Part shown: positions 7,859 through 56,621 of the stretch, one piece after another
Layout of the letters: every line of letters begins with the position of its first letter
How positions within the stretch are numbered: the stretch's first letter is position 1
DNA from: Candidatus Levyibacteriota bacterium
Lineage (GTDB): Bacteria > Patescibacteriota > Microgenomatia > Levybacterales > UBA12049
Assembly (NCBI GenBank): GCA_016186645.1
Contig: JACPLF010000007.1
Location: forward strand, 126,651 to 190,650
DNA: 64,000 bases
Direction of reading: 5' to 3'
Notes under the pieces: model-generated
What the model was told of the DNA's origin: nothing
Databases searched by the model: none
The model's input: only the letters and a program-made list of their open reading frames with translations
Translations under genes and position numbers: made by a program

Positions 7859-9402
7859 TGGTGTTTTTATTGATTTTAATTGGCGGATTTTTTCGCTTTT
7901 ACAATTTGGATTGGGGCAGCCCTTTTTATTTTCACCCTGATGAAAGAAATATTGCATCTTCTGTATTACAGATCAATTTCCCCAATCAGATGAACCCTCA
8001 TTTTTTTGCTTATGGATCTTTTCCTATATATTTAATTTATTTTACAGCTTTTTTTTTAAATTTAGTTAGCAAATCCCAACTGACTTTTGAACAAGCGCTT
8101 ATTATCAGCCGGTTCTATTCTGCAATTTTATCCGTACTTCTTATTCCCTCCATTTATTACATAGGAAGCAAATTAGCAAATAAAAACGTTGGGCTTATTG
8201 CAGCAGTATTTTGTACTTTTAGTGTTGGTCTGATTCAATTTTCTCATTTTGGAACATTTGAAATTTGGCTTACTTTTTTAGGTCTTTGGCTCTTTTATTT
8301 TTCCCTAAAATTATTAAAACAATTAGATTTTAAAGATATCATTACGGTTGGACTAATATCCGGACTTCTTGCAGCAACAAAGATTTCCTCTCTACCTCTT
8401 CTGATGATCCCTATGTTTTCTATATTAATAAGTTATTTATCACACAATAAATTATTCAAACATATCTTATATGGCTTGTCGCTAATATTTATCTCCTGCA
8501 TCTTATTTTACGCTGTTTCTCCTTATGTTTTTCTGGATACTTCTTCTTTTATAGCAAGCATGAGGCATGAGTCTTCTGTTGCTTTGGGAACATTATCTGT
8601 TTTTTATACGGGTGGCTTTTTCAATTCTATTCCTGTTATTTTCCAGTTTACGAAAATTTATCCATTTTTACTTAATCCAGCCTTGACTATCTTATTTATT
8701 CCTTCCCTAATTTATGTTATTTATTTTTTTCTGAAAAAACGGCATTATCCTCAATTACTTGTAGTCGCTTGTTTTTTATTACTTTTTTTCTCCCAAGCTT
8801 TTCTTTTTGCCAAATGGACAAGATATATATTGCCCACTTTGCCATTTGTATATTTAATAATTGCAATTTTTATAGATAAATTTATCAATAAAAAAATATT
8901 GCAAATCATATTTCTTATTTGCATAGTTTTTTCATGTTCTTATTTTATTGACAGTTTTGCAAGAAAGGATACCCGTATCCAGGCAAGTCTTTGGGCAAAA
9001 GAAAATATTCCTTCCAGCTCACGAGTATTAAGTGAGGTTTATGATTTGGGAATAGTCCCATTTAATCAATATCTGCCAAATATTTCCTTATTCAATTTTT
9101 ATGACTTAGATCAAACCCCCGACAAACCCTTGGAGCTTGATAAATTCTTATTAGAAAGTGGATATATTATTTTACCTAGTCAGAGAATTATACAAACTCG
9201 TATGATGAATAAAGACGAATTTCCCAATGGATATAAGTTTTACAATGAACTTATAAATGAGAAATTGGGATATAAAAAGGTTTACGAAACTTCTTGTGAT
9301 CTATTCTGCAAAATAATATATCTTGGAGATCCGGTTTTTTCATTCGAGGAAACTGCAAATGTTTTCGACCGCCCTACTGTTTTTATCTTTAAAAGAATGT
9401 GA
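7855..9402 (+). CDS. GT-C fold membrane glycosyltransferase (GT39/PMT_2-like, HPDER loop motif)
   Basis: 515 aa polytopic membrane protein; N-terminal loop FYNLDWGSPFYFHPDERNIASS; paralogous to the next gene. Confidence 0.55.
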   Translation: MMVFLLILIGGFFRFYNLDWGSPFYFHPDERNIASSVLQINFPNQMNPHFFAYGSFPIYLIYFTAFFLNLVSKSQLTFEQALIISRFYSAILSVLLIPSIYYIGSKLANKNVGLIAAVFCTFSVGLIQFSHFGTFEIWLTFLGLWLFYFSLKLLKQLDFKDIITVGLISGLLAATKISSLPLLMIPMFSILISYLSHNKLFKHILYGLSLIFISCILFYAVSPYVFLDTSSFIASMRHESSVALGTLSVFYTGGFFNSIPVIFQFTKIYPFLLNPALTILFIPSLIYVIYFFLKKRHYPQLLVVACFLLLFFSQAFLFAKWTRYILPTLPFVYLIIAIFIDKFINKKILQIIFLICIVFSCSYFIDSFARKDTRIQASLWAKENIPSSSRVLSEVYDLGIVPFNQYLPNISLFNFYDLDQTPDKPLELDKFLLESGYIILPSQRIIQTRMMNKDEFPNGYKFYNELINEKLGYKKVYETSCDLFCKIIYLGDPVFSFEETANVFDRPTVFIFKRM

Positions 9403-11147
9403 AATATCTACCATTATTTTTAATTTTAATTCTTGCTTTTATCTTGAGGGTATACGGACTAAATTGGGATCAAGGATTTCATTTGCACCCTGATGAACGG
9501 GCAATTGTAATTGCCTCTATACCCTTACAACTTCCTACCAATATTTCGGAACTTTTATCTGTCCAAAGCCCTTTAAATCCTCACTTTTTTGCATATGGGA
9601 GTTTACCAATGTATCTTCTTAAAGGGGTTGCTGTTCTCTTAACACCTTTTTATCCTCTTGCCTCATCATATGATCATATTAATTTAGTCGGACGTTTCCT
9701 CTCTGTTATTTTCGACATGGGAACTATTCTTATTATTTTTCTTCTGGGACAAAAACTTTTTTCAAGAAAAGTTGGACTAATAGCTGTATTTTTTTATACT
9801 ATAAGTGTTTTCCCTATCCAAGCTGCGCATTTTTATGCTGTTGATACCCCTCTTACTTTCTTTATTTTAGCAACTCTTTATATGCTTATTAGTTTCTATG
9901 AAAATCCTACAAAGAAAAAAGCTCTTTTTGTGGGGATATTATTTGGAATGTCTCTTGCAACGAAAACAAGTGCTTTAGTTCTGATAATGTCAATTGGAGC
10001 AGCATTAATTTCAGATTTTGTTTTGATATTTCTAAGAATTCCCCACCGACCTCATATTTGGTTTCCTCACATCCCTAAACTCATAAAAAAACTTTTAATA
10101 GAAGGTTTAATTATTTTAATATCAACAGTTATTTCTTTTATTATTTTTGAACCTTATGCTCTTTTGGATTTTAAGGAATTCTCAAGACAAACTCTGGAGC
10201 AATCGCAAATGACACATAATCCTTTCGCTTTCCCTTTTACCCTTCAGTACGTTGGAAAAATTCCATATTTCTATGAATTAAAAAATATTTTCTTTTGGGG
10301 TCAAGGACCGATTATTGCGACAATTTCTTTTTTGGGAACACTGTATATTAGTTTTCACCTAATAAAGAGACACCTCGGATGGTGGCGAAGCAACGACTTC
10401 GACTCCTCCGAGGTGGACAAGAGATGGGCACAAGAACTTATTCTTTTAATTTTTTTCTTAAGTTATTTTATTGTGGTTGGAAAATTTGCAGTCGGCTGGA
10501 TGCGCTACATGCTCCCTCTCTATCCTCTCCTTTCTCTTTTCGCAGCAGTTCTTGCTTATAAACTTCTAATTTTAATTAAGCGCAAATTTGGTTATTGGTA
10601 TTTATTTGTAGTATTGGTATTTATTTGTAGTATTTTATACTGGCCTTTATCTTTCGTGAATATTTATACAAAACCAAACACTCGCGTTTTGGCATCTGAG
10701 TGGATTAATCAAAATATTCCAGTAGGACCAACTCTTGCAATAGAACACTGGGATGATTCCCTTCCCTTGTTTGGCCAAGAAAAATATAAAATGCTTACAC
10801 TTCCGCTTTATGATCCCGATACTTCTGAAAAATGGAAAACAATAAATCAGGAATTATCAAAAACCGATTACATTATTATTGCTTCCAATCGACTTTATAC
10901 GCCACTTATGCGTTTGACAGATTGCAAAAAATTACCGGTGGGAAGATGCTATACGCAAACTTCTGAATATTATAAAAAACTATTTAGCGGATCTCTGGGT
11001 TTTAAGAAAGTAGCTGAATTCACATCGTATCCTAAATTTAGCTTCCCACTTGTCAAGTGGGAGCACGAAATAAATGATTCCTCAGCAGATGAATCTTTTA
11101 CGGTATACGATCATCCAAAAGTCCTAATTTTTCAGAAAATTCCTTGA
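9399..11147 (+). CDS. GT-C fold membrane glycosyltransferase (GT39/PMT_2-like), tandem paralog
   Basis: 582 aa; VYGLNWDQGFHLHPDERAIVIAS loop motif; ATGA start/stop overlap with the upstream paralog. Confidence 0.55.
   Translation: MKYLPLFLILILAFILRVYGLNWDQGFHLHPDERAIVIASIPLQLPTNISELLSVQSPLNPHFFAYGSLPMYLLKGVAVLLTPFYPLASSYDHINLVGRFLSVIFDMGTILIIFLLGQKLFSRKVGLIAVFFYTISVFPIQAAHFYAVDTPLTFFILATLYMLISFYENPTKKKALFVGILFGMSLATKTSALVLIMSIGAALISDFVLIFLRIPHRPHIWFPHIPKLIKKLLIEGLIILISTVISFIIFEPYALLDFKEFSRQTLEQSQMTHNPFAFPFTLQYVGKIPYFYELKNIFFWGQGPIIATISFLGTLYISFHLIKRHLGWWRSNDFDSSEVDKRWAQELILLIFFLSYFIVVGKFAVGWMRYMLPLYPLLSLFAAVLAYKLLILIKRKFGYWYLFVVLVFICSILYWPLSFVNIYTKPNTRVLASEWINQNIPVGPTLAIEHWDDSLPLFGQEKYKMLTLPLYDPDTSEKWKTINQELSKTDYIIIASNRLYTPLMRLTDCKKLPVGRCYTQTSEYYKKLFSGSLGFKKVAEFTSYPKFSFPLVKWEHEINDSSADESFTVYDHPKVLIFQKIP
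10374..10413. repeat. hairpin element (cctcgga ... tccgagg) in-frame within the GT-C gene
   Basis: 7-bp inverted repeat flanking cgacttcgactcc, a core shared with the uvrD/guaA element family; encodes ...LGWWRSNDFDSSEVDK.... Confidence 0.5.
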
Positions 11148-12224: not shown

Positions 12225-12791
12225 ATGAATATTGGATTTGATTTAGATAAAATATTTATTAATTATCCTCCTTTTGTTCCATCAAAAATTATTGATTTAT
12301 TATATAAAGGAAAACCGCGTGCGGAATTGGAATATCGTATACCGTCAAGATTGGAGCAGATTATTAGAATATTCAGCCACCACCCTATATTTAGATCTCC
12401 TATAGCTGAAAACATGAATTATGTTAAAGACTTAGCTTTACAGAATGAAAATAAATATTATCTTATTTCCAGTAGATTCAGCTTTTTGGAGAAAAAAACA
12501 ACAGAACTTATAAAGCGTCTCAGCCTAGATAAAATATTTAATGCGATGTATTTCAACTACAATAATGAACAGCCTCATCTTTTTAAAAACGGAGTGCTAA
12601 AGAAGTTAAAACTTGATATGTACATTGACGATGATTTGCAACTTTTGGAATATCTAGGGAATAAAAATCCTAAAATCAAATTTTTCTGGTTGAATAAGAA
12701 GTTTAGCAGATCATTGAAAAAAAATTTATTTGCTATAAAAAACATTTCGGAAATGTTCACCCCGCACCAAAATGGTGCAGGGTTCAAATAA
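12225..12791 (+). CDS. hypothetical protein, possibly degenerate HAD-like (NT5C-type) hydrolase
   Basis: MNIGFDLDKIF resembles HAD motif I (DxD); YIDDDL resembles motif IV; weak. Confidence 0.3.
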   Translation: MNIGFDLDKIFINYPPFVPSKIIDLLYKGKPRAELEYRIPSRLEQIIRIFSHHPIFRSPIAENMNYVKDLALQNENKYYLISSRFSFLEKKTTELIKRLSLDKIFNAMYFNYNNEQPHLFKNGVLKKLKLDMYIDDDLQLLEYLGNKNPKIKFFWLNKKFSRSLKKNLFAIKNISEMFTPHQNGAGFK

Positions 12792-15069
12792 TATGCTCCT
12801 CTCGGATTTGCTTAATATTTTCCAATGGTGGGCAACATTTTTTTTTGCTGGCGTTATCTTTATTCCCATAACAACTTTGATCTTTCCCAACTTTTTCGAT
12901 AAGGGTTATATTTTTGCGAAAGTTATAGGAATAGCATTAATAAGTTATACAATTTTTGTTTTAGGGTTTTTAAAACTACTTCCTTTTGAAACGCAAAATC
13001 TCTACATAATTCTAGGATTGTTTATTCCTATCAATTTATTGATTGGGAGAAAAAGTAAACTCAATTTCAAGCAGATACTCCCAATAATTATTATAGAAGA
13101 ATTTTTATTCGCAGCAATTCTTTTGTTTTGGTCTTTTATCCATGCCCACCAACCGGACATTCATGGGCTGGAAAAATATATGGATTATGGATTTATAAAT
13201 TCTATTTTAAGAGCTAAGTATTTTCCTCCTTTAGATATGTGGCTTACACCCTACCCTATTAACTATTATTATTTTGGGCATTTAGTAACTGCTGTTTTGA
13301 CAAAGCTTTCATTTCTTTCGTCATCAATTACTTTCAATTTAACGCTTTCAACAATCGCTGCATTTACTTTTACAGGTGCATTTTCAATTGGCGCAAATCT
13401 CCTATATTTTTTAAACAAAAACGGTAAAAATTCGAAATTACCAATAATCGGAGGCATTCTTACTGGACTTATACTAGGTTTTGCAGGAAACCTGCATACA
13501 GTTTATTTATTTTTCAAGCCTTATGAAAATGAAAATCCTGTACCTTTTTGGCAGTTAATCTTTTCTCCTAATACATTTCCAAATAGCTATTGGTATCCAA
13601 ATGCAACGCGCTTCATCGAAAACACTATTCACGAATTTCCAATCTATTCCTCTGTTGTTTCCGATCTGCATGGCCACGTTCTAGACATACCTTTTGTACT
13701 GCTAACAATAGCTATTCTTTTATCAATATTTTTTAGATTTAATAATCAATCCTCAATTCAAAATTTAAAATTCAAAATTCAAAGTGACAATTCAAAATTC
13801 AAAATCTTAAACTTTGAGTTTCCGTTTTTAACTTTTAACTTTTCACTTTTAACTTTGCTAGCATTTTTGCTAGCAATTATGTATATGATCAATGCTTGGG
13901 ACGGAATAATATATTTCTTATTGACAGCAATCGTAATTGCCTATGTCAAGCTAAAGTCAATAATACAAATTTCTCCCCACCAAAGTATTAAGTATTATGT
14001 ATCAAGTATTAAACAATCAAAGTACCTAATACCTACTACTTTATACTTAATACTTATTTTTGTTGGGTTTTTCCTTTTTACTTTACCTTTTAATCTTAAT
14101 TTCAAGCCTTTTGCTTCGGGGATTGGCGTACTTTGTGCGCCAAAATTTCTAACAGACATAGGACAATTTGGACCTTTCCTTTTTGAGCCAGACCATTGCC
14201 AACATTCACCTTTATGGCAATTATTTATTCTATATGGCTTTTTCTATTTTTGGATTTTTGGATTTTTAGTTTTTAAAATTAGAAATTTTTCTCCACCCGA
14301 TATCTTTGTATTGATTCTAATCCTGTTATCCGCTCTTCTTATTATCATTCCTGAATTTATATATGTAAAAGATATTTATCCTGCACACTACAGAGCAAAC
14401 ACCATGTTCAAACTTGTATATCAGTCATTCATGATGCTTTCTATCTCCTCGGGCTATATAATGGTTAGGCTAGTATCAAGTATTAAGTATTACGTATTAA
14501 GTATCGAGAAAAAAATTCTTTATGTCTTATACTTTATACCTGCTACCTTATACTTAATACTGGTATTCTTTTATCCTTATTTTGCGATTAATTCCTACTT
14601 TGGAAATTTAAAAACTTACCATGGTCTTGATGGAACAAGTTATCTTAAGCCACTTTATCCAAATGACTATGAAGCCATTTTGTGGATTAATAAAAACATT
14701 AAAGGACAACCAATTATTCTTGAAGCGCAGGGAGATTCGTATACCGACTATGGTCGCGTATCAGCCAATACCGGACTACCAACTGTTTTAGGATGGACTG
14801 TTCATGAATGGCTTTGGCGCGGAACCTATGATATTCCTTCCCCTCGGATCGAAGAAGTTGCAAAAATGTACGAATCCGATAATTCGAAAGAGATAGAATC
14901 CTTGTTAAAAAAATATAAAGTTTCGCTTATATTTATTGGTGAGTTAGAAAGACAAAAATATCCAAATCTTAATGAGGAAAAATTTCAGCTTTTAGGAAAA
15001 ACTATTTATCAAAAAGGCGATACAAGGATATTCCAGTCGATCACTGAAGAGGACAATCGCCAATTTTAA
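12772..15069 (+). CDS. large polytopic membrane protein (possible GT-C/DUF2298-like), carrying in-frame repeat insertions
   Basis: 765 aa, many TM helices, C-terminal soluble domain; internal tandem repeats and two inverted-repeat insertions (see repeat features). Confidence 0.45.
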   Translation: MVQGSNNMLLSDLLNIFQWWATFFFAGVIFIPITTLIFPNFFDKGYIFAKVIGIALISYTIFVLGFLKLLPFETQNLYIILGLFIPINLLIGRKSKLNFKQILPIIIIEEFLFAAILLFWSFIHAHQPDIHGLEKYMDYGFINSILRAKYFPPLDMWLTPYPINYYYFGHLVTAVLTKLSFLSSSITFNLTLSTIAAFTFTGAFSIGANLLYFLNKNGKNSKLPIIGGILTGLILGFAGNLHTVYLFFKPYENENPVPFWQLIFSPNTFPNSYWYPNATRFIENTIHEFPIYSSVVSDLHGHVLDIPFVLLTIAILLSIFFRFNNQSSIQNLKFKIQSDNSKFKILNFEFPFLTFNFSLLTLLAFLLAIMYMINAWDGIIYFLLTAIVIAYVKLKSIIQISPHQSIKYYVSSIKQSKYLIPTTLYLILIFVGFFLFTLPFNLNFKPFASGIGVLCAPKFLTDIGQFGPFLFEPDHCQHSPLWQLFILYGFFYFWIFGFLVFKIRNFSPPDIFVLILILLSALLIIIPEFIYVKDIYPAHYRANTMFKLVYQSFMMLSISSGYIMVRLVSSIKYYVLSIEKKILYVLYFIPATLYLILVFFYPYFAINSYFGNLKTYHGLDGTSYLKPLYPNDYEAILWINKNIKGQPIILEAQGDSYTDYGRVSANTGLPTVLGWTVHEWLWRGTYDIPSPRIEEVAKMYESDNSKEIESLLKKYKVSLIFIGELERQKYPNLNEEKFQLLGKTIYQKGDTRIFQSITEEDNRQF
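13755..13855. repeat. tandem simple repeats (aattcaaa)n then (ttttaac)n in-frame within CDS
   Basis: aattcaaaatttaaaattcaaaattcaaagtgacaattcaaaattcaaaatc ... ttttaacttttaacttttcacttttaacttt; encodes QNLKFKIQSDNSKFKILNFEFPFLTFNFSLLTL. Confidence 0.7.
13984..14055. repeat. inverted-repeat element (agtattaagtat ... atacttaatact) inserted in-frame, copy 1
   Basis: Termini agtattaagtatt and atacttaatact are reverse complements; a diverged second copy lies at 14472-14562 in the same gene. Confidence 0.55.
14472..14562. repeat. inverted-repeat element (agtatcaagtattaagtatt ... tacttaatact), copy 2
   Basis: Same terminal inverted repeats as copy 1; encodes VSSIKYYVLSIEKK...ATLYLIL paralleling ISPHQSIKYYVSSIKQ...TTLYLIL. 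Confidence 0.55.
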
Positions 15070-16183: not shown

Positions 16184-16781
16184 TATTCGACATTTGAGTA
16201 AACTTTTTTACATTCTCCGATGTTACACTTCCTCCATAAAGAACATATTGGACTTTGTAATTTTTTTTGAAAAATGCAGCAACTTCTTGTGCACTTTCCG
16301 CAGTATCAGGGCGTCCTGTTCCTATTGCATTAATAGGTTCATATGCGACTATAGCGATATCCGAAGGAATCTTTGTCTCGATTCCCTGGACACAAAAAAT
16401 TGGGGCCAAACCATGCTGCTTTGATAACTCCGCTTTTTTAAACAATATTTCATCATTTTCATTAAAATTCGTTCTTCTTTCAGAATGACCAATGAGGACG
16501 TAGTCTGCAAATTCTTTAATCTGCCTTGCAGATACCTCTCCAGTATAGGCACCTTCATCAAAAGGGGAAACATTTTGCGCCCCAATCTTAAATCCTAATT
16601 CATAATTCTTGATTACCGATTCAATTTCAGAAAGAAGAGTAAAAGACGGACATATAATTATCTCCTTATTCATAATTCGTAAATCATAATTCTTAAATCT
16701 CTGAAACCAAAAATCAGCTTCAGAACTCGTGAAATTCGACTTCCAATTAGCCACAATAAAGGTCTTTTTCATATGGTACAA
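16113..16781 (-). CDS. tpiA: triosephosphate isomerase
   Basis: IVANWKSN..., AYEPINAIGTG, LYGGSV motifs; 222 aa. Confidence 0.8.
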   Translation of the reverse strand: MYHMKKTFIVANWKSNFTSSEADFWFQRFKNYDLRIMNKEIIICPSFTLLSEIESVIKNYELGFKIGAQNVSPFDEGAYTGEVSARQIKEFADYVLIGHSERRTNFNENDEILFKKAELSKQHGLAPIFCVQGIETKIPSDIAIVAYEPINAIGTGRPDTAESAQEVAAFFKKNYKVQYVLYGGSVTSENVKKFTQMSNIDGVLVGGASLDAQEFYAIIKNA

Positions 16782-18677
16782 TTACAACATTATACTATGG
16801 ATCAAGACTTTCTAAAAGACTTAAATCAGGAACAACAAAAAGCAGTTTTGCAGACTGATGGTCCGGTAATCATTCTGGCAGGAGCAGGATCTGGAAAAAC
16901 AAGAGTGTTAACGTATAAAGTCATGTATTTAATACAAGATATGAAAATTGATCCCTTCAATATTCTAATGGTAACCTTTACCAATAAAGCTGCTAATGAA
17001 ATGAAAGAACGTGTCCAAAAAATGGGTGCAATTCCGACCGTTGCTACTTTTCATTCTTTATGCGCCAAAATTCTGAGGATTGAAGGAAAACATATAAACC
17101 TTCCTTCGCAATTCGCAATATATGATACGCAAGATAGTCTGGAGGCTATAAAAGAAGCAATGAAAAGGCTGAATATTTCTATAAAAGATTACAAACCGTC
17201 CTCTATTCTGGCGAATATATCGCAGGCAAAAAATGAACTTATCAATGATTCCGAATATTTAAAATATGCAAGAGGGAATTTCCAGGAAAAAGTTGCAAAG
17301 ATTTATCCTGTGTATCAAAAAATTTTAGCAGAAAACCATGCTCTTGATTTTGACGATCTTCTTTCTAAAACCGTGTTATTGTTTGAAGAAAATTTAACAA
17401 TTCTTGAAAAATATCAAGATCGTTTTCGTTATATCTTGATAGATGAGTACCAGGATACAAATCGAGCCCAATATATCTTGACTAAAAAATTAGCCAAAAA
17501 GTGGAATAATGTGTGTATTGTTGGAGATTTTTCCCAAAGCATATATAGCTGGAGAGGTGCGGATTTTACCAATCTATCCCGTTTCAAGGAGGATTTTAAA
17601 AATACAAAAACTTTTTCTCTTTCCCAAAACTATCGATCTACACAAAAAATTTTGGATAGCGCCTCATCGGTAATATCCAAAAATACAACTCACCCAGTAT
17701 TAAATCTTTGGACGGAAAATCCGAACGGTGATGAAGTTGTTATTTTTGAAGCACAAAATGAGCAGCAAGAAATAGAATTCGTAGTAAATACAATAGGAGA
17801 ATTTAGACTACAAGAAAAGAAAGATTTTAAATTTTCCAATAATGCTGTCCTGTATAGGACTAACGCTCAATCGCGAGTTTTGGAAGAAGTTTTTTTACAT
17901 AATAGTATTCCGTATGTCCTAATTGGGGGTACACGGTTCTACGAAAGAAAAGAAATAAAAGACGTACTCGCTTATTTGAGAGCATTGGATAACAAAAAGG
18001 ATAAGATATCTTTAAAGCGCATTGAAAAAATTGGAAAAAGAAAAATGGAGAAATTTCTAGAATTTCAAGAGAAAGTAAACGTCACTCTGGGGAGGTCGAC
18101 GCTTCGACCGACTCCAAAATCCGATTCTGGACAAGCCAGAATGACAACATTAGAACTTCTGGACAAAGTGCTAAATGTAACCGATTACCTATCTTTATAT
18201 GATGACCGTGACGAAGAAGATAGACAAAGACTGGAAAATATTAAGGAACTTCGTTCTGTAGCTTTTGAATTTTCCGATCTTACTAATTTTTTAGAAAATG
18301 TCTCCCTTGTTGAACAAGAATATATGCCGGATCCTTCGGCAAGCTCAGGACAAGCAAAGAAAGATGCTGTAACTCTTATGACACTACATGCAGCTAAAGG
18401 TCTTGAATTCCCATACGTATTTATGATCGGCATGGAAGAAGGACTTTTTCCACACTCTCGCTCATTAATGGAGAAGAATGAACTTGAGGAAGAAAGAAGA
18501 CTCTGCTATGTAGGAATGACTAGGGCTCGGAAAAGGCTCTTTTTAACCTATGCTAGAAGAAGAATATTCTTTGGTCAAAAAATTTCAAATATCGTTTCCA
18601 GATTTATTTTGGAACTTCCTGAAAATGTAATTGAACAAAATATTTCCTTAACTAACAATTATGAAAGCCTTAACTAA
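16773..18677 (+). CDS. uvrD: ATP-dependent DNA helicase UvrD/PcrA
   Basis: Walker A LAGAGSGKTRVLT, DEYQDTN, helicase motifs throughout; 634 aa; contains two in-frame hairpin-repeat insertions. Confidence 0.85.
   Translation: MVQLQHYTMDQDFLKDLNQEQQKAVLQTDGPVIILAGAGSGKTRVLTYKVMYLIQDMKIDPFNILMVTFTNKAANEMKERVQKMGAIPTVATFHSLCAKILRIEGKHINLPSQFAIYDTQDSLEAIKEAMKRLNISIKDYKPSSILANISQAKNELINDSEYLKYARGNFQEKVAKIYPVYQKILAENHALDFDDLLSKTVLLFEENLTILEKYQDRFRYILIDEYQDTNRAQYILTKKLAKKWNNVCIVGDFSQSIYSWRGADFTNLSRFKEDFKNTKTFSLSQNYRSTQKILDSASSVISKNTTHPVLNLWTENPNGDEVVIFEAQNEQQEIEFVVNTIGEFRLQEKKDFKFSNNAVLYRTNAQSRVLEEVFLHNSIPYVLIGGTRFYERKEIKDVLAYLRALDNKKDKISLKRIEKIGKRKMEKFLEFQEKVNVTLGRSTLRPTPKSDSGQARMTTLELLDKVLNVTDYLSLYDDRDEEDRQRLENIKELRSVAFEFSDLTNFLENVSLVEQEYMPDPSASSGQAKKDAVTLMTLHAAKGLEFPYVFMIGMEEGLFPHSRSLMEKNELEEERRLCYVGMTRARKRLFLTYARRRIFFGQKISNIVSRFILELPENVIEQNISLTNNYESLN
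18086..18146. repeat. hairpin repeat element family A (ggtcgacgcttcgacc + gattctggacaagccagaatgaca) in-frame in uvrD
   Basis: Near-identical to 54802-54858 in guaA (shared gactccRaaatcgattctggacaagccagaatgacaa); two stem-loops; encodes GRSTLRPTPKSDSGQARMTT. Confidence 0.7.
18329..18356. repeat. repeat element family B (ggatccttcggcaagctcaggacaagca) in-frame in uvrD
   Basis: 29-nt near match, about 3 mismatches, to the dnaG copy at 50347-50376 in reverse orientation; encodes PDPSASSGQAKK. Confidence 0.6.
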
Positions 18678-19662
18678 TCACCCATTACAATCTGCTGCGT
18701 GGGGTGAATTTAGAAAAAAAACTGGAATAAAAGTAATAAAAATTAATAGAACCCAAATAACAATTCACAAGGTTCCTCACACACCCTGGACAATTGGCTA
18801 TGTCCCAAAAGGTCCGCTTCCAGACAAAGAAATGATTTCAGAACTTAAGAGAATCGGGAGAGAGAAAAAATGTGTGTTTATTCAGCTGGAACCAAATGTA
18901 TTAATTGAAAATTCTAAATTGAAAATTGAAAATTTAGGTCTTAAGCCAGCCGCTCATCCTTTGTTTACAAAATATACTTTTGTGTTGGATTTAACAAAGT
19001 CCGAAGTGGAATTGCTGAAAGAAATGCATCCAAAGACTAGATACAACATAAAAGTAGCGCTCAAACACGGTGTTAAAATTGTTCAGGATAATTCGAATGA
19101 AGCTTTTGAAACCTATTTAAAATTGACAGAAGAGACAACAAGAAGACAAGGTTTTTATGCGCATACAGAAAAATACCATAGGCTAATGTGGGAAACATTA
19201 AAAAATGAAAAATTAAAAATGAAAAATGAAAAATTGGATACTGATAAACTTACTGCTCATCTCTTATTGGCTAAGTATAGTCCAAACTCTCAACTCTCAA
19301 CTTTCAATTCTCAACTCGTTCTGGCTGCTTGGATTTTGTTTGTTTATAAAGATACCCTTTATTATCCATATGGCGCATCAAGCAGTTTACATCGGGAAAC
19401 AATGGCATCAAATCTAATAATGTGGGAAGCAATAAAGTTTGGAAAAGAATTAGGTCTTAAAAAATTTGACATGTGGGGAGCCTTAGGGCATGATCCTTCT
19501 ACAAATGACCCTTGGTATGGATTCCACAAATTCAAACAAGGATATGGGCCAAAACTTACTGAATTTGTTGGAAGTTTCGATCTGGTAATAAATCCGTTTT
19601 TTTATGAGATGTATAAAATAGCAGACAAAATTAGGTGGGCACTTCTGAAAATTAAAAAATGA
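18661..19662 (+). CDS. FemAB-family peptidyltransferase (peptidoglycan interpeptide bridge formation)
   Basis: 333 aa, FemABX/GNAT-like fold signatures (...YYPYGASSS...MWEAIKFGKELGLKKFDMWG); carries three in-frame simple tandem repeats. Confidence 0.55.
   Translation: MKALTNHPLQSAAWGEFRKKTGIKVIKINRTQITIHKVPHTPWTIGYVPKGPLPDKEMISELKRIGREKKCVFIQLEPNVLIENSKLKIENLGLKPAAHPLFTKYTFVLDLTKSEVELLKEMHPKTRYNIKVALKHGVKIVQDNSNEAFETYLKLTEETTRRQGFYAHTEKYHRLMWETLKNEKLKMKNEKLDTDKLTAHLLLAKYSPNSQLSTFNSQLVLAAWILFVYKDTLYYPYGASSSLHRETMASNLIMWEAIKFGKELGLKKFDMWGALGHDPSTNDPWYGFHKFKQGYGPKLTEFVGSFDLVINPFFYEMYKIADKIRWALLKIKK
19201..19235. repeat. (gaaaaat)n tandem repeat in-frame in FemAB gene
   Basis: aaaaatgaaaaattaaaaatgaaaaatgaaaaatt encodes KNEKLKMKNEKL; related (ttgaaaa)n tracts at 18916-18935 and 33526-33562 and in intergenic DNA at 45826-45856 and 53825-53856. 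Confidence 0.65.
19286..19317. repeat. (ctctcaa)n tandem repeat in-frame in FemAB gene
   Basis: aactctcaactctcaactttcaattctcaactc encodes NSQLSTFNSQLV. Confidence 0.65.
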
Positions 19663-28608: not shown

Positions 28609-29466
28609 ATGGTAGATTTAACTTCGGAAAAATTAAAAGATTTAGAAAACAAAGCAAATAAGATAAGACAGATGATTATTGAAATGCTTGTTGAGGCGGG
28701 ATCAGGACATTCAGGAGGACCGCTCGGAATGGCAGATATTTTTACGAGTTTTTATTTTCATATTTTAAATCACGACCCAAAAAATCCAAGTTTGCCTGAC
28801 CGAGACAGACTAGTTTTGTCCAATGGACATATTTGTCCTGTTCAATATGCCACAATGGCTTTGGCCGGATACTTTCCGATTGATGAACTAAAAACTTTAA
28901 GAAAAATAAATTCCCGTTTGCAAGGACATCCTCATAGAAGCTCTCTTCCCGGCGTCGAAACAACTTCAGGGCCTTTGGGTGAAGGATTGTCTCAGGCAAT
29001 TGGAATAGCATTAGCCGGAAAGATGGACAAAAAAAACTATCGTGTTTACTGTCTGACATCTGACGGAGAACATGAGGAAGGAAATACATGGGAAGCAGTT
29101 ATGTTTGCGGCAAAAAATAAATTGAATAATTTAATTCAGGTTATAGACCGCAATTATATTCAAATAGATGGCAGAACAGAAAATGTTATGCCTCTTGATC
29201 CTTTAAAAGAAAAGTATGAATCTTTTAATTGGAATGCAATAGAGGTAGATGGAAATGATATTAAGAGTTTTATTGTGGCTATTGAAAAAGCCAAATCAAT
29301 GTTGGATAAACCAACTATTATAATTGCGAAAACAATTCCGGGAAAAGGTGTGAGTTTTATGGAAAATGATTATCATTGGCACGGCAAGCCGCCAAATAAA
29401 GAAGAAGCCGAGAAAGCTCTAGTTGAACTACAAGCATTGAGAGAAAAAATTATAAAAGGAGAGTAA
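28609..29466 (+). CDS. tkt: transketolase, N-terminal (TPP-binding) subunit
   Basis: GSGHSGGPLGMADI TPP motif; 285 aa; partner C-terminal subunit at 29944. Confidence 0.85.
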   Translation: MVDLTSEKLKDLENKANKIRQMIIEMLVEAGSGHSGGPLGMADIFTSFYFHILNHDPKNPSLPDRDRLVLSNGHICPVQYATMALAGYFPIDELKTLRKINSRLQGHPHRSSLPGVETTSGPLGEGLSQAIGIALAGKMDKKNYRVYCLTSDGEHEEGNTWEAVMFAAKNKLNNLIQVIDRNYIQIDGRTENVMPLDPLKEKYESFNWNAIEVDGNDIKSFIVAIEKAKSMLDKPTIIIAKTIPGKGVSFMENDYHWHGKPPNKEEAEKALVELQALREKIIKGE

Positions 29467-29943
29467 CGATTCTAATATACGAATGTATACTAATAATACG
29501 AATAGAAAAATAAATAAAGACAAACTGATATTTCCCGAACTTTCTTATATGTTAACGGGAATTTGTTTTGACGTCCATAACGCTCTGGGCAGATTCTCTA
29601 AAGAAAAACAATACTGTGATGTGCTGGAAGAAAAATTAAAAAACTCTAACATTCCTTATGAAAGAGAATTAAGAGTAAAAAATACAGGCAACATATTGGA
29701 TTTTCTAATAGATAATAAAATTATAGTGGAAATAAAGGCCAAAAGGATACTTCTAAAAGAAGACTATTATCAATTACAGCGTTATCTTCAAGTACTAAAC
29801 ATGAAACTTGGTTTATTAATAAACTTTCGGAACCGCTACTTAAAACCCGCAAGAATTATCAAAATAGACACAGATGCAAGAAAAAAATTCGTACAACAGT
29901 AGTATTAGTATAATTAGTATGCATTAGTATATTCGTATCGCTT
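29467..29943 (+). mobile_element. small inverted-repeat-flanked element carrying a PD-(D/E)xK (GxxExxY/PDDEXK_3-like) gene, inserted between the tkt subunit genes
   Basis: Left end cgattctaatatacgaatgtatactaataatacgaat and right end cattagtatattcgtatcg match the two halves of the 71-nt palindromic element at 30939-31009. Confidence 0.5.
29483..29902 (+). CDS. PD-(D/E)xK nuclease-fold protein, GxxExxY (PDDEXK_3) family
   Basis: ELSYMLTGICFDVHNALG ... ILDFLIDNKIIVEIKAKRIL ... LQRYLQVLNMKLGLLINF matches the family pattern (ELSY..IG.A..VH..LG; DLLV..KIIVELK; LNYLK..GLKLGLLINF); D-x(n)-E-x-K core. Confidence 0.7.
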   Translation: MYTNNTNRKINKDKLIFPELSYMLTGICFDVHNALGRFSKEKQYCDVLEEKLKNSNIPYERELRVKNTGNILDFLIDNKIIVEIKAKRILLKEDYYQLQRYLQVLNMKLGLLINFRNRYLKPARIIKIDTDARKKFVQQ

Positions 29944-30933: not shown

Positions 30934-30938
30934 TTATG

Positions 30939-31009
30939 CGATGCTAATATACTAATTCGTACCAATAATACGAATTTGTATCATTAGTAACATTCGTATA
31001 TTGGCATCG
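30939..31009. repeat. 71-nt nested palindromic element (cargo-less copy of the GxxExxY element ends)
   Basis: cgatgctaatatac ... gtatattggcatcg terminal inverted repeats, 1 mismatch; inner aattcgta/tacgaatt pair; fills the whole tkt-FAD oxidase intergenic space. Confidence 0.6.
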
Positions 31010-45745: not shown

Positions 45746-45862
45746 CTCCTCCCTCTTACAAAACCACAGGATAATTATATCAAAAGCTAGATTTATAAGT
45801 GTTTTAATGATAAAATTATAGCCAGAAATTAATTTTTAACTTTTAATTTTTAATTTCGTTTA

Positions 45863-49136: not shown

Positions 49137-50960
49137 TTAAGCTTTGGAGAGGAGGCTAATCGTTGAGGCTAGTTCTTTTTCTAAATCGCCCACTTTTTTA
49201 ACATCTGCATCCCTATCTCCTGTCTTAAGCTTTAAGGAAATTTTTTTTATTCTTTCTTTCAAAAATAACGTTCTTAATTCAGCTGCGACCTTTTCTGATT
49301 CTAAAATATATTTCTCCTCATCTTCAAATTTAGGTAAAGGAAATAGATACTGAGTGTCAAAAGCGGTTTCCAATTCTTTAGGGAGGACCTTTAAGAAAAT
49401 TTTGGGATTAAATGTATTACTAGACTTGAAATAGTCAACTAAAAAATTTATTATTTTTTCATATGAAACTGTCTTAAACTCATAATTTTTGAGAATTGCC
49501 AAGCATCTATCTAAAATTTTCTTGGCATTGCCATTCTGAAGAATCAGAGCCAATAAATAATCCTCCAAGACTTCTTTTCTCTCTTTTTTTTCTATTTTCG
49601 CCTCTTTGATTTCTTCCTTTATAACCTCTTTCTTTTCTATTTTTTCTACCTCTTTTGCAATAGCATCCAAAGATATATCAAGATCAAGACTTAATTTTTT
49701 TAGATAGTGCTCTTTTACTATTTCATTTGAGATCTTTGTAAAGATAGGCAACAACTCTTCGCTTATTTTTCTTTTTCCATAAATTTTATCTTTTTCAAAG
49801 GCAGAAAACGTTTTTGAAAAAATAAAATCATATATTGGAACATCTTTTTTGATAGCCTTTTTAAAAGATATAGGATCTTTTTTTATGGCTTCGTCAGCGT
49901 CTTTACTTTCTTCAAAAATACAAGTTGTTATATTCATTCCTTTTTTTTCTAAAACAAGCAAACTTCTTTTCGCAGCTTCATAACCAGCATCGTCTTTATC
50001 AAAACAAAGACAAATATTATTTGTAAATCGGCTAATGAGAGCAACTTGATTCTCAGTAAGAGCAGTTCCTTTTACCGCCACGACATTTTTAACGCCAATA
50101 CTAAAACAAGAAATAACGTCCAATTCTCCTTCTACAATAATTGCTTTGTCTAGTTTTTTTATTTCTTCTTTTGCAGTATTTAAACCAAAAAACATACTGC
50201 CTTTGTGATAAACGAGTGTATCTCGAGTGTTAATATACTTTCCGCCGCTGTATGGCTCCAGAATTGCACGTCCTGAGAATCCTACAACATTATCCCTATG
50301 ATCAAAAAGCGGAAACATTACTCTTCCTCTAAAAAAATCAAGCACGCCTGCTTGTCCTGAGCCTGTCGAAGGACCCCTTCCATAAAACGCTAATCCTGCT
50401 TCTATCAAATCTTCCTTTTTATATTTTTTCTTGTTGATTAGATAATTGGACAGATCAACGCCATCTTTTGGAGAAAATCCAATCATAAAAGTCTCGATGA
50501 GTCTTTCGTCTAACTTTCTTTCTTCTACTAAGTAACCGAGTGCTTTTTTCCCGGCTTTGTGTTTGGTTAAAACATAATGATAAAAATCCAGGGCGGCTTT
50601 ATTTATTTTATAAATCATTTCTTTTTTCCCGGAAACACCCGCCTGGAAATCTGATTGTCTAAGCTGTATCCCTGTTCTTTTTGCCAAAATCCTCAAGGCT
50701 TCAACAAATTCCAAATTCTCATACTCCATGAGAAATGTATATACGTCTCCGCCCTTGCTGCAGCCTCCAAAACAGTGCCAAATCTGGCGCTCAGGAGAAA
50801 CAACAAAAGACGGAGTTTTTTCGTTATGAAAAGGGCAAATTGCCTTAAAATTGCGGCCCATTTTCTTAAGAGGAATATATTCCGATATAAAAGAAACTAT
50901 ATCTATTCTTTCTCGTATTTGCGCAACCTCATCCATCCCGTTAGAAAACCCTCCTTTCAA
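49137..50960 (-). CDS. dnaG: DNA primase DnaG
   Basis: Zinc-ribbon CPFHNEKTPSFVV...HCFGGCSKGGD, TOPRIM EGELDV...DKDDAG; contains the family-B repeat element in-frame at 50347-50376. Confidence 0.85.
   Translation of the reverse strand: MKGGFSNGMDEVAQIRERIDIVSFISEYIPLKKMGRNFKAICPFHNEKTPSFVVSPERQIWHCFGGCSKGGDVYTFLMEYENLEFVEALRILAKRTGIQLRQSDFQAGVSGKKEMIYKINKAALDFYHYVLTKHKAGKKALGYLVEERKLDERLIETFMIGFSPKDGVDLSNYLINKKKYKKEDLIEAGLAFYGRGPSTGSGQAGVLDFFRGRVMFPLFDHRDNVVGFSGRAILEPYSGGKYINTRDTLVYHKGSMFFGLNTAKEEIKKLDKAIIVEGELDVISCFSIGVKNVVAVKGTALTENQVALISRFTNNICLCFDKDDAGYEAAKRSLLVLEKKGMNITTCIFEESKDADEAIKKDPISFKKAIKKDVPIYDFIFSKTFSAFEKDKIYGKRKISEELLPIFTKISNEIVKEHYLKKLSLDLDISLDAIAKEVEKIEKKEVIKEEIKEAKIEKKERKEVLEDYLLALILQNGNAKKILDRCLAILKNYEFKTVSYEKIINFLVDYFKSSNTFNPKIFLKVLPKELETAFDTQYLFPLPKFEDEEKYILESEKVAAELRTLFLKERIKKISLKLKTGDRDADVKKVGDLEKELASTISLLSKA
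50347..50376. repeat. repeat element family B (reverse orientation) in-frame in dnaG
   Basis: Reverse complement ggtccttcgacaggctcaggacaagcagg resembles uvrD 18329-18356; encodes GPSTGSGQAGV in DnaG. Confidence 0.6.
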
Positions 50961-51172: not shown

Positions 51173-52468
<1,296 letters not shown>

Positions 52469-53865: not shown

Positions 53866-55446
53866 TCATTCCCATTCCATTGTTGCTGGAGGCTTGGTAG
53901 TAATGTCGTAGACAACTCTTGAGACGCCTGGAACTTCGTTAACTATTCTTGAAGAAATTTTCTGTAAAAGATCATAGGGGAGCCGGGCCCAAGTTGTAGT
54001 CATAAGATCTTTTGACTCAATCACCCGAAGAGCTACAACCTCTCCAAACTGCCTCCCATCTCCTTTAACTGCAGTTGAATATGCATCTGTCATAACCGGA
54101 AAAGACATGAAGATATTTGGAATTCCCGATTTTTCAAGCTCTGAAAGAACAATCTCATCTGCCATTTTCTCCATTTCCAATCTTTCTTTTGTAACTTCCC
54201 CTCTAATTCTGACTGCGTATCCCGGACCGGGAAAAGTCTGCTTGCTAACAAATTCCTCAGGCAGTCCTAATTTTCTTCCAATTTTTCTCACTTCATCTTT
54301 ATAAAAATCCCGCATTGGTTCCAAAAGTTTTAATTTCATTTTTTTTGGCAATCCGCCAACATTGTGATGTGACTTAATTTTAGCCGAATGTTTTGTGCCT
54401 TGAGATTCTATAACATCCGAATAAATCGTGCCTTGAAGAAGAAACTTTACAGGTATTTTTTTCTTTAACAATTTTCTCCTAACACTTTCAAAAATCTCTA
54501 TGTAAAAATTGCCAATAATTTTTCTTTTCTTCTCGCTATCTGTAATTTTTTTAAGGCGGGACATGGTCTCCCCTGTCACATTTACTACTACAGGCTTAAT
54601 GCCAATTTTCTTAAATATTTTTATTACATGCTCCTCTGTTCCCTTCCTCATTAATCCATTGTCAATAAAAACAGGGACAAATCTTTTCCCTATCGCTTTT
54701 GCTGTTAAAGTCGCAGCAACTGTAGAATCAACTCCTCCCGATACTGCTCCGATTACATAACTCTCCCCGACAGTTTTTTGAATTTCTGAAATTATCCTCT
54801 CTGTCATTCTGGGGAACGAAGTGACTCCAGAATCGATTCTGGACAAGCCAGAATGACAAATACCAATAAAGTTTTCCAAGATTTGTAAGCCAAATTGCGT
54901 GTGTTCCACTTCCGGATGAAATTGAAGCCCGTATATTTTTTTATACTTGTTTTCAACAAATGCAAAAGGAACCCCAACGGACGAACCTACTGTTTGAAAA
55001 CCTTTAGGCAATCTAACCACCTCATCTCCATGACTCATCCAGACAATAAATTGCCGCGGCAATTTAGATGAGAATTGAGAAATGAGAGATGGGAAATTTT
55101 TATTTCTCATTTCTGACCTCTCATCTTTCATTTCCAGTGTCGTTGGTCCATATTCTTTTTTTCCTGCAATAACTCTTCCGCCTAATAAATGTGCTGTTAA
55201 TTGCAAACCATAACAAATTCCCAAAATTGGAATTTTCAAACTAAAGATCTTCACGTCGATAGTTGGTGCGCCTTTTTCGTAAACAGAAGATGGGCCTCCA
55301 GACAAAACTATTCCTTGGGGTTTCTTCTTTTTTATTTTTTCAAGGGCATCATCCGGATTAGCTATTAATACCTGTACACCAATTTCTTTAAGACGGCGTG
55401 CAATAAGATGTGTCGTCTGAGACCCAAAATCAACAATTATAATCAT
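53866..55446 (-). CDS. guaA: GMP synthase (glutamine-hydrolysing)
   Basis: GATase (GICYGLQ, HPEV) plus ATP-PPase SGGVDS motif; contains the family-A repeat element in-frame in the inter-domain linker. Confidence 0.9.
   Translation of the reverse strand: MIIIVDFGSQTTHLIARRLKEIGVQVLIANPDDALEKIKKKKPQGIVLSGGPSSVYEKGAPTIDVKIFSLKIPILGICYGLQLTAHLLGGRVIAGKKEYGPTTLEMKDERSEMRNKNFPSLISQFSSKLPRQFIVWMSHGDEVVRLPKGFQTVGSSVGVPFAFVENKYKKIYGLQFHPEVEHTQFGLQILENFIGICHSGLSRIDSGVTSFPRMTERIISEIQKTVGESYVIGAVSGGVDSTVAATLTAKAIGKRFVPVFIDNGLMRKGTEEHVIKIFKKIGIKPVVVNVTGETMSRLKKITDSEKKRKIIGNFYIEIFESVRRKLLKKKIPVKFLLQGTIYSDVIESQGTKHSAKIKSHHNVGGLPKKMKLKLLEPMRDFYKDEVRKIGRKLGLPEEFVSKQTFPGPGYAVRIRGEVTKERLEMEKMADEIVLSELEKSGIPNIFMSFPVMTDAYSTAVKGDGRQFGEVVALRVIESKDLMTTTWARLPYDLLQKISSRIVNEVPGVSRVVYDITTKPPATMEWE
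54802..54858. repeat. hairpin repeat element family A in-frame in guaA (tgtcattctgg ... ccagaatgaca terminal inverted repeats)
   Basis: tgtcattctggggaacgaagtgactccagaatcgattctggacaagccagaatgaca; 38-nt core nearly identical to uvrD 18109-18146; encodes CHSGLSRIDSGVTSFPRMT, a linker about 7 aa longer than E. coli GuaA. Confidence 0.7.
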
Positions 55447-56621
55447 GAATAGCTTTTCCCCGGATTGGTAACAAAAATATCATGAGGATGACTTTCTGTT
55501 AATGATGCCTGAGTAATTTTGATAAATTTTGCTTTTTTCCACAGTTCCCTTATATTTTTTGCTCCAATATAGTACATCCCTGATTTTATTCCGCCAATTG
55601 CCTGGCCAACCAAATCTTTAACAGATCCCCTTATTGGCACGAGTCCTTCCACTCCTTCTGCAATCAGCACTCTATCTTTGTAATTTTTTCCATGGAATTC
55701 ATCTTCTGATTTTATCAAAGCTCCTTTTTTCATCGCTCCCTCTGACCCCATTCCCCTATATTCTTTGAATTGATAATGTTTTTTTATATTAGAAATTCTT
55801 TGAAACCGAGAGGGAATTTCATTTCGACCAAATGTTACAACTTTTCCCGGAGATTCGAGAGATTGAGCAAAATAACTCCCCATCATAACCGTTGAAGCGC
55901 CGGCAGCCAAAGCCTTCACCATGTCACCTGAATATTTGATTCCTCCATCTGCAATAACCGGAACCCCGAGTTTTTTTGCAATTCTTACACTTTCTAGTAT
56001 TGCTGTTATTTGCGGCACTCCCATTCCGGAAATTATTCTTGTTGTGCAAATCGCTCCGGGCCCCATCCCTACCCGCAGCCCATCCGCTCCAGCTTTGATC
56101 AGTGCTCTTGCTCCATCCGCAGTTGCGATATTGCCTGCAATAACATCGATATTTTTGTAATTTTTTTTGATAAATTTTACAGCGTCTATTACTCCTTTGG
56201 AAAATCCGTGAGCAGAATCAACAACAACTACATCCGCTTCCCCATTTGCCAGAGCTTTTATTCTTTCTTCAAATCCTTTGCTCGCTCCAACTGCCCCACC
56301 AACGAGCAGAGCTCGCCCTGAGGCGGGCGTTTGGGTTTTTTTCACCTTTTTAACTTCAGACGCTTGATTTTCTACAGACAAATTTCTATGAATAATTCCA
56401 ATTCCGCCTAATTTTGCCAGTTCAATTGCAAGTTCAGACTCGGTAACCGTATCCATTGGGGCTGAAACAAGAGGAATAGAAATTTTTATTCTTTTTGTTA
56501 ATTGAGTTGATAAATTTATGTCCTTACGAAGAAAATCACTATAGCCGGGAAGAAGAAGAACATCGTCAAAAGTCAATCCAAATTTAAAGTTTGCCCTGAG
56601 CTTGCCGAAGGGTGGCTCCAT
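55443..56621 (-). CDS. guaB: IMP dehydrogenase-family protein (GuaB-like, no CBS pair)
   Basis: 392 aa TIM-barrel; catalytic-loop region [15 protein letters not shown] (Cys) and GGIKYSGD phosphate-binding motif. Confidence 0.8.

Follow-up and report, generated by a model that had tools for sequence, protein, structure and literature searches.

Results

A short repeat lying in frame in uvrD, dnaG and guaB

The window analysed here is the whole 64,000-nucleotide stretch of contig JACPLF010000007.1 (assembly GCA_016186645.1, positions 126,651 to 190,650, forward strand) from Candidatus Levyibacteriota bacterium, and the subject of this report is a short repeat that lies within three of its genes, uvrD/pcrA, dnaG and guaB (Table 1). 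The UvrD protein of the window is 100% identical to a protein from a Candidatus Levybacteria metagenome-assembled genome (MAG), within the Patescibacteria or Candidate Phyla Radiation (CPR). The G+C content of the window is 35.7%, and because the host genome is AT-rich, gene-dense and reduced, the repeat stands out as a GC-rich island. The original prediction had described a match at 26 of 29 positions between uvrD and the reverse complement of dnaG; the match is real, though it comprises 25 of 28 positions and begins in dnaG at 50349, 2 nt away from the predicted 50347. The 28-mer ggatccttcggcaagctcaggacaagca, at 18329-18356 (+) in uvrD, has at up to 3 mismatches a sole other match in the window, at 50349-50376 (-) in dnaG, where 100 dinucleotide-preserving shuffles gave 0.00 expected matches and an analytic estimate for a 25/28 match anywhere in the window is about 1.6e-7. 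A degenerate search located one further copy, CCTTCGGCAAGCTCAGGGCAAAC, in the 5' end of guaB at 56589-56611 (-), and beyond these three no more copies occur in the window at up to 4 mismatches (controls 0.0).

The repeating unit can be written as (C/T)CCTTCGRCARGCTCAGGRCAARC, and all three window copies match this consensus perfectly. Among the 128 exact matches listed from the genome scan described below, a C or T precedes the 23-mer (C in 77% of cases, and in 87% of lone copies), the flanks are uninformative on both sides, and conservation drops sharply at positions -1 and +23; because conservation stops abruptly at both edges, the unit is 24 nt, or eight codons. Near-matches show that its invariant part is the 15-nt CTTCGACARGCTCAG and that the 3' tail varies by subfamily. 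Five of the six frames are free of stops, the remaining one, an antisense frame, containing TGA, and the sense frames encode the peptides PS(A/T)(S/G)SGQ(A), (P/S)F(D/G)(K/R)LR(A/T)(S/N) and LRQAQ(D/G)K. The peptides PDPSASSGQAK and GPSTGSGQAGV that had been assigned to UvrD and DnaG are borne out by translation of the open reading frames (ORFs), which contain ...MPDPSASSGQAKKD... in UvrD and ...GRGPSTGSGQAGV... in DnaG; the predicted insert-spanning peptides are ...YMPDPSASSGQAK..., ...GPSTGSGQAGVLDFFR... and MEPPFGK.... Peptides from its other frames (FDKLRAN, LRQAQDK, LSLSK, PELVEG) are ones that we take to be common in short database "hypothetical proteins".

The unit has no self-complementarity, no GTAG and no terminal inverted repeats (TIRs), and the lone window copies, folded together with 20 nt of flank, do not exceed shuffled sequences in stability (z = -0.73, +0.11 and +1.30). 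It does contain an internal 7-4-7 direct repeat, GRCARGC-TCAG-GRCAARC, with a period of 11 bp (one helical turn), which is not retained in the second variant described below.

Table 1. Positions in the window of the module copies, their host genes and the family A hairpin elements.
Feature	Coordinates	Strand	Description
Module copy 1	18332..18355	+	unit tCCTTCGGCAAGCTCAGGACAAGC in uvrD/pcrA; PSASSGQA; loop before helicase motif ...DAVTLMTLHAAKG
Module copy 2	50350..50373	-	unit tCCTTCGACAGGCTCAGGACAAGC in dnaG (sense to gene); PSTGSGQA; turn, catalytic-core N-terminal subdomain
Module copy 3	56589..56612	-	unit cCCTTCGGCAAGCTCAGGGCAAAC at guaB 5' end; other frame, PFGKLRAN right after Met-Glu-Pro
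Host gene uvrD/pcrA	16773..18677	+	634 aa ORF; Pfam UvrD-helicase, UvrD_C
Host gene dnaG	49137..50960	-	607 aa ORF; Pfam Zn_ribbon_DnaG, DNAG_N, Toprim
Host gene guaB (IMP dehydrogenase)	55443..56621	-	392 aa ORF; Pfam IMPDH, E 4.5e-137
Family A hairpin element	18081..18145	+	in frame in uvrD; RNA fold z = -3.65; in few UvrD orthologs (insertion)
Family A hairpin element	54803..54857	+	antisense in guaA inter-domain linker; fold z ~-3.3; Pfam GATase and ATP-PPase domains flank

Filled and empty sites in orthologs

The UvrD loop that carries the module in the window lacks the motif in 97 of 120 Levybacteria-type orthologs (67-100% identity), which read ...EQEY-MPDK-xGSQ-IKKDAV..., while the filled loops are of two kinds, a PSxxSGQ-type peptide after MPD (12/120) and PS(A/T)SLR(T/A)G before MPD (11/120). 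At the DNA level, compared across 33 related metagenome loci, the empty uvrD sites are rich in A (one reads ccg gac aaa aaa aat agc...), and the sites filled with the first variant read ccg gaY|CCTTCGGCAAGCTCAGGRCARGC|a aag aaa (the window and locus L124, with decayed copies in L125 and L138). The second variant is also 24 nt long, lies two codons upstream in uvrD, has ACTTCRC replacing ACAAGC, and is found as gaa taY|CCTTCGGCTTCACTCAGGGCAAAC|atg cca gat in L121, L128, L133, L140 and L182; the UvrD proteins that bear it have in common a linked downstream signature, MPDG(S/T)..G(E/K)KKD. Further offsets, such as PDHP|STGSG.. and SGGPSAGSG, are also seen.

The DnaG site is empty in 87 of 120 orthologs (Y-SGSR-V), the others carrying either the first variant, Y(G)RG-PSTxSGQA-GV, or the second, Y-PSASLRTS-SGV. 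The corresponding DNA is tat tcc ggc tca aga gtt when empty (L201), tat (gga) agg ggT|CCTTCGACARGCTCAGGACAAGC|agg cgtg with the first variant (the window and L203) and tat|CCTTCGGCTTCGCTCAGGACAAGT|tcg gga gtt with the second (L202). The N-termini of about 120 GuaB orthologs are likewise either empty, MEPRNSSFQFGLTFDD, or, in about one third, filled as MEP-PF(G/D)KL(R/S)VN-NFSFGLTFDD, with many decayed forms. In all three genes the gain per filled site is about 24 nt (about eight codons), and comparison of filled with empty sites in uvrD and dnaG reveals no target-site duplication (TSD). Against solved structures the UvrD loop is variable and gapped (PcrA, 1pjr), and the DnaG turn is likewise so against Aquifex DnaG (2au3).

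Decayed modules, or a microhomology target, were considered as the content of the empty UvrD loops and rejected, their similarity to the module being that of shuffled loops (median p 0.77) with L129 as the single exception; because they are no more module-like than shuffled loops, the empty loops are indeed empty and do not hold eroded copies. Copies that share a gene site have drifted, with an identity of 0.69-0.73 in the module, 0.76-0.85 in the flanks and 0.47-0.62 at flank third positions. In a regular-expression scan of the 240 UvrD and DnaG orthologs, module-type peptides were found solely at these two loops, apart from the family A site in UvrD, which is a different element. These comparisons uphold the proposal of a DNA-level family of short coding-compatible elements, in preference to a conserved peptide or coincidence, in that there are three copies, variants of them, and different reading frames; two copies encoding a peptide conserved in orthologs had been named as the pattern pointing to coincidence, and the window contains three copies with a peptide absent from most orthologs.

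Two observations concern these loci more broadly. In the UvrD ortholog P0076, from another lineage, the loop equivalent to window positions 18320-18365 reads MPDPSRNLPAGRQGSGQVHKGK, with an apparent GC-rich insert LPAGRQG beside an SGQV remnant, which suggests that inserts from more than one family gather in the UvrD loop. In L202, the purA gene beside dnaG (695-1893) is called as two to three separate ORFs, which could reflect a frameshift, a pseudogene or an assembly error.

Density and phylogenetic scatter

In 463 kb of Levybacteria DNA there are nine copies with up to 3 mismatches, all within ORFs and all on the sense strand; seven of the nine are the uvrD and dnaG loops by which those loci had been picked. 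Quick neighbour-joining trees with the loops masked were analysed by Fitch parsimony, which ignores recombination, and in both the UvrD and the DnaG tree the root state is "empty".

Distribution across phyla

The family is not private to this genome and is cosmopolitan across species genomes. An exact scan for CCTTCGRCARGCTCAGGRCAARC of one genome per species (185,579 species, 596 Gb) gave matches in at least 120 stretches, where about 0.3 would be expected by chance. The matches listed come from more than 15 phyla, with a local G+C of 33-72% and with taxon labels for MAG matches taken from the record titles. Carriers listed include Chloroflexota (Anaerolineales, Dehalococcoidia, Thermomicrobiales), many Pseudomonadota, notably Sphingomonadales, as well as Acidobacteriota, Cyanobacteriota, Nitrospirota, Planctomycetota, Omnitrophota, Bacteroidota, Spirochaetes, Calditrichaceae, Lentisphaeria/Victivallales, Eremiobacterota and Streptomycetaceae; within the CPR they are Saccharibacteria, Kaiserbacteria, Nealsonbacteria and Shapirobacteria. 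Sphingomonas natans, Sphingopyxis sp. PET50 and Chakrabartia godavariana are listed carriers that are isolates. The motif is also present on 34 viral contigs, and variant 2 on a further 4, and it has no match, even at E<=10, in 5,426 E. coli genomes. The same E. coli search gave no match that would point to an rRNA or tRNA template as its origin, which was rejected on this ground, although such a search is blind below about 20 nt.

The 130 occurrences among the matches listed include 77 lone copies, 40 with an inverted partner and 17 in tandem. Inverted pairs have a spacer of 11-76 nt, mostly 30-45 and with a mode of about 40, and form hairpins of about 80-95 nt with the ends CCGTTYG...CAAACGG; no flanking duplication was found around 29 such doublets. 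Tandem arrangement is exemplified by L048, where four units follow one another with a period of 24 nt. The hairpin form lies between genes, and has no annotation, in Sphingobium replicons. Thirty-seven lone copies among the matches listed lie in open frames of at least 600 nt, 29 sense and 8 antisense, with the PSxSSGQA frame the commonest; this sense bias arises largely because the single stop-containing frame is antisense and the antisense peptides are hydrophobic. Compared with solved structures, the argininosuccinate synthase (ArgG) of L103 contains an exact eight-residue insertion, SASSGQAA, and module insertions are likewise seen in a Saccharibacterium FolD and in PurC. Other in-frame copies lie in GatB, a PolX-type polymerase, an E2 acyltransferase linker and a Ser/Thr kinase. 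The idea that the flanks of the module generally pair into a hairpin whose loop it occupies was rejected, since among the cross-phylum loci listed it holds for only about 7% versus 2% of controls, mostly in Acidobacteriota.

Family A and the purA match

Family A, a second repeat that had been linked to the module in the original prediction, is about 55-65 nt long and has the form GTCAYTCTGG ... CCAGAATCGATTCTGG ACAAGC CCAGAATGAC. The link stands as far as the shared 8-mer GGACAAGC, which occurs six times in the window against 1.1 expected, and there is no further likeness, family A being a hairpin and the lone module not. The proposed RNA hairpins accordingly divide, with family A folding significantly and the lone module copies not. 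The shared 8-mer may reflect a building block common to the two, judging from sequence. The terminal 21-mer of family A is present in L121 as well, at the same site of UvrD, and three viral contigs (46-58% GC) carry it; on two of these, L243 and L244, it lies beside other hairpins whose stems differ and whose ACAAG(C) loop is kept. The 13-nt match that had been noted in purA does exist, at 51530-51542, but it matches family A rather than the module, and it was rejected as a module member: the sequence is native PurA, gap-free against solved structures, and about 0.1 such matches are expected by chance. The purA match is thus a coincidence.

Searches for a mobilizing enzyme or a parent element

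No REP-associated tyrosine (RAYT/Y1) transposase is encoded among the approximately 45 ORFs of the window, which covers 64 kb of a genome that we estimate at roughly 1 Mb. A parent transposon was also sought in the fetched loci, where inverted pairs of modules 0.3-4 kb apart enclose ordinary genes and no transposase.

Other repeats and GC-rich inserts in the window

Several other repeats lie in the window. An intergenic stretch at 47123-47202 is GC-rich and structured (minus-strand fold z = -2.4) with no Rfam match, and its minus strand, GTCTGAGCCTG[agggttcatccctcaga]GTCGAAGAC, resembles the reverse-complement core of the module split by a small hairpin; on this sequence likeness it may be a non-coding relative of the module. 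A half-module, CTCAGGACAAGT, is found at 44541-44552, adjoining the left copy of a motif around TCTGGAAATTCCCCACAAAAAAGA (containing GGAAATTCC) that occurs three times, at 44552-44579, 47236-47256 and 47420-47447. Two of its copies form an inverted pair 2.8 kb apart that flanks a peptidase M23 gene, tRNA-Asn and the gene for an Ig-like protein.

The LepA ORF (1312-3060, -) contains between LepA domains II and III a GC-rich island at 2167-2263, ...DTVRSSEFGAQSSEFEPLPG..., built of tandem GAGTTCGGAG-like units, which looks like a third family of in-frame GC-rich insert. A PMT-like ORF (9399-11147), for a membrane glycosyltransferase-like protein, contains at 10366-10434 an in-frame GC-rich hairpin, CACCTCGGA...TCCGAGGTG, with the peptide KRHLGWWRSNDFDSSEVDKRW. 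The DUF2298 ORF (12772-15069), also for a membrane protein, has two in-frame AT-rich palindromes, AAGTATTAAGTATTA ... TAATACTTAATACTT (13983-14055 and 14479-14561), with the peptides SIKYYVSSIK..KYLIPTTLYLIL, and these could be the AT-rich counterpart of the GC-rich inserts. At 29467-29503, 29904-29944 and 30935-30975 lie AT-rich repeats, direct as well as inverted (CGATTCTAATATACGAAT...), which enclose a 139-aa ORF and the C-terminal half of a transketolase that is split in two (28609-29466, 29944-30933). A 922-aa ORF at 36785-39553 has no Pfam match and contains degenerate Tyr/Thr/Pro repeats (Y-T-T-P-x-Y-Y-T-P) at 38084-39374, so that its product may be a cell-surface protein. Finally, periodic A-tract repeats (AAATGAAAAATTAAAAATGAAAAATG and its reverse complement) are found at 19201-19236, 53829-53862, 45829-45856 and 13828-13855.

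Discussion

Comparison with known repeats

The repeat is almost certainly an inserted module, and neither native sequence nor a chance resemblance. In the summary accounts available, the Rickettsia palindromic elements (RPEs) are described as palindromes of 105-146 bp that form long hairpins and are confined to Rickettsia (Ogata et al. 2000, via Delihas 2011, PMC3184786; Delihas 2008, PMC2229807). The module is similar to them in being a probably selfish and presumably translated repeat in frame within genes of a reduced AT-rich genome, at tolerated positions and with orthologs that lack it, but it is 24 nt long, has no fold of its own, occurs in many phyla and has no sequence relation to them. 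It is not an RPE, because it is neither palindromic nor 100-150 bp in length. The repetitive extragenic palindromic (REP)/REPIN-RAYT system is a comparator with a similar range of arrangements, in that both occur singly, as inverted doublets (in the module the spacer is about 30-45 nt) and in clusters or tandem arrays, with no TSD. In the case of REPs each unit is an imperfect palindrome with a 5' GTAG, extragenic and lineage-specific, with a RAYT gene alongside, whereas the module is non-palindromic and cross-phylum, and all three window copies and all nine Levybacteria copies are intragenic. Since it has no GTAG palindrome and is neither extragenic nor lineage-specific, it is not a REP.

Among MITEs (miniature transposable elements with inverted repeats), those known to land in ORFs include the 107-bp form of Correia/NEMIS, BRE, RUP and the enterobacterial RU elements (PMC2229807, PMC3184786, PMC3110155). 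These are small non-autonomous repeats too, some with open frames that are fused internally or terminally to genes, but they measure 80-300 bp and have TIRs and usually a TA or other TSD, whereas the lone module has neither TIR nor TSD and solely its doublet form is readable as a TIR pair. The module is therefore not a MITE. Identity with BRE, the betaproteobacterial repeat element, was rejected, the published supplementary BRE sequences being without TTCGAC, GTCGAA or any longer piece of the module. As far as it is described in PMC2229807, the Caulobacter CcrM-associated intergenic repeat (CIR) is two-armed, about 110 bp long, contains GANTC and stops in six frames and is never intragenic; by that description it differs from the module, which has no GANTC, has five open frames and is intragenic.

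A known RNA family was rejected as an identity, since an Rfam scan of the window at gathering threshold gives tRNA-Asn only. The first-hairpin consensus of Rfam RF02901 (AaHKsRNA41, Aggregatibacter small RNA (sRNA) 41), ..GCUGAgCUUGcCGAAGC...UUCGgCAAGcUCAgCaagccg, does contain the module core in both arms, with the consensus alignment CUGAGCUUGxCGAAG ... UUCGxCAAGCUCAG. In a relaxed scan, doublets from Sphingopyxis, Chakrabartia and others score 23-42 bits against it (best 41.8; gathering score 97), and the lone window copies give no RF02901 match. The RF02901 entry describes a 187-nt transcript defined by RNA-seq and not a repeat, and the text of the sRNA survey mentions no repeats (PMC5909427). 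It is the only existing record of the module sequence that we found; a full-text search of the papers covered, for the characteristic module peptides and DNA strings, gave nothing relevant, and topic searches gave general repeat reviews only.

Yeast mitochondrial GC clusters and byps offer a further likeness as short GC-rich mobile inserts in an AT-rich genome that also lie inside coding genes. Both are elements of a eukaryotic organelle; the GC clusters form palindromes, while the ribosome passes over byps by translational bypass. For the module, which is exactly eight codons long with the frame running through, translation would be the simplest reading. Uptake signal sequences and DNA uptake sequences (USS/DUS) are also short motifs that are tolerated in certain frames, form inverted pairs in terminators and are enriched in genome-maintenance genes, but they number about one per kb and are lineage-specific, whereas the module has three copies in 64 kb and is cross-phylum. 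Among in-frame-inserting repeats, then, the module is unusual for the size of its unit, for being identical across phyla and for recurring in single loops.

Origin and spread of the module

The reading that we favour, with confidence only a little better than even, is that the module is short non-autonomous selfish DNA that has spread horizontally, with the doublet as its propagating form and an enzyme supplied in trans, and that it persists in genes as loop residues. Presuming that it is translated, it would be read through as eight added residues, small or polar, that fall in two surface loops and in one tail at the N-terminus. Its persistence in essential genes would be accounted for by a length that is a multiple of three, by five of six frames being stop-free, and by sense peptides that are either rich in P/S/T/G/Q/A or charged. 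The inverted doublet, the hairpin of about 80-95 nt seen in Sphingomonadales, Chloroflexota and others, is probably what propagates, and single units probably arrive by a process that leaves no TSD, involving single strands or the copying of a template, a route at which we can only guess. The enzyme would be carried on other mobile DNA or on phage, and recombination among relatives probably imports already-filled alleles, adding to the patchiness. The combination of no TSD, no TIR and a fixed unit argues against classical DDE transposition.

Several considerations weigh against this account. The module is found in one loop per protein although other variable-length regions exist, which never bear it, and its scatter over the trees, with recombination ignored, needs at least 19 changes in UvrD (23 filled) and at least 27 in DnaG (33 filled), counts that on the sequences at hand show patchiness and not a number of events. 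Across 1.0 Mb of UvrD-centred loci from CPR and other bacteria there are four copies, three of them in the UvrD loop; copy density in these CPR genomes is thus very low, and an actively transposing element should be commoner. A rare element has thus inserted no fewer than two times into one and the same loop of each of two proteins, in the form of two variants whose codon positions differ, and random insertion followed by selection does not comfortably explain such recurrence, for which targeting, a very small set of permissive sites, or the exchange of filled alleles between lineages are the candidates. Furthermore, no transposase, reverse transcriptase or integrase is encoded among the window ORFs, and because neither the window nor the intervals between inverted pairs yielded a mobilizing enzyme, mobility is read from distribution only. 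The 24-nt non-palindromic unit lacks the size and the complexity of any known transposase substrate, and its perfect consensus in an AT-rich genome could reflect purifying selection on the DNA or RNA sequence. A more specific version, possible but in our judgement doubtful, is that the 24-nt unit is itself what is inserted, by an unrecognised machinery (possibly phage-borne or template-copying) with a real site preference; if so, that preference would explain why two variants each occur in the same UvrD and DnaG loop despite so few copies per megabase, and the unit would be the smallest mobile DNA unit known, with no inverted repeats, duplication or gene of its own.

The selfish reading has to be set against others. 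A few old insertions in Levybacteria ancestors, now immobile and made patchy by homologous recombination of filled and empty alleles between lineages as well as by loss and decay, would fit the very low density genome-wide while the same loops are filled, the decay of same-site copies (L125, L138), the lack of a mobilizing enzyme in the window, and the signature linked to the second variant in UvrD, which suggests one origin. We nevertheless think it rather unlikely that the copies are such fossils, since at least two variants at different codon positions in both loops, together with the further offsets, call for several independent insertions per loop, and perfect-consensus copies in a 36% GC genome sit poorly with great age when flank third positions are only 47-62% identical. 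Nor does it seem probable that the 24-mer is kept as a functional cis-element, a binding or recognition site in mRNA or DNA for a widely conserved factor, with its 11-bp-period direct repeat, in which case the copies in coding sequence would be regulatory sites placed within genes: the cross-phylum conservation with its invariant core, the perfect match of three window copies and the resemblance of the hairpin doublet to an expressed sRNA in Rfam speak for this, as does the sense-strand bias, but the stop-containing antisense frame and the hydrophobic antisense peptides largely account for that bias. Moreover, the module is missing from most orthologs with no compensating feature, same-site copies drift faster than their flanks, lone copies are unstructured, the direct repeat is not kept in variant 2, and in other phyla the hosts and positions are unrelated.

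Two remaining explanations carry much less weight. That the module is a DNA uptake signal favouring DNA of the same species is very improbable, even though two of its three hosts are genome-maintenance genes, its copies are in frame, inverted pairs occur elsewhere and the window encodes the PilN and PilO pilus parts; a density of about 1 per 20-250 kb, versus about 1 per kb in known uptake sequences, comes close to refuting it, and a motif common to many phyla would defeat self-recognition. The Aggregatibacter relative of the hairpin presumably also lacks that genus's known uptake sequence. We give virtually no credence to coincidence, convergent low-complexity linkers or an assembly or adapter artefact: the peptide is Gly/Ser-rich like many linkers and most of the genomes are MAGs, but the chance expectation for a 25/28 match is about 1e-7, one DNA sequence is used in three frames and from both strands, isolate genomes carry it, independent assemblies contain the same insertion with sequence drift, and the flanks are the two contiguous halves of one gene.

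If the selfish reading is correct, core replication, repair and nucleotide-synthesis proteins of a CPR bacterium would carry eight-residue inserts of selfish DNA. The same unit is common to Saccharibacteria, Chloroflexota, Acidobacteriota, Sphingomonas and Streptomycetaceae, posing the question of what agent carries a fixed 24-mer between phyla and inserts it with none of the usual signs of transposition. In practical terms, the module adds homoplastic indels to marker-gene alignments, and the places where it lies point to natural sites at which conserved enzymes tolerate insertions of eight residues.

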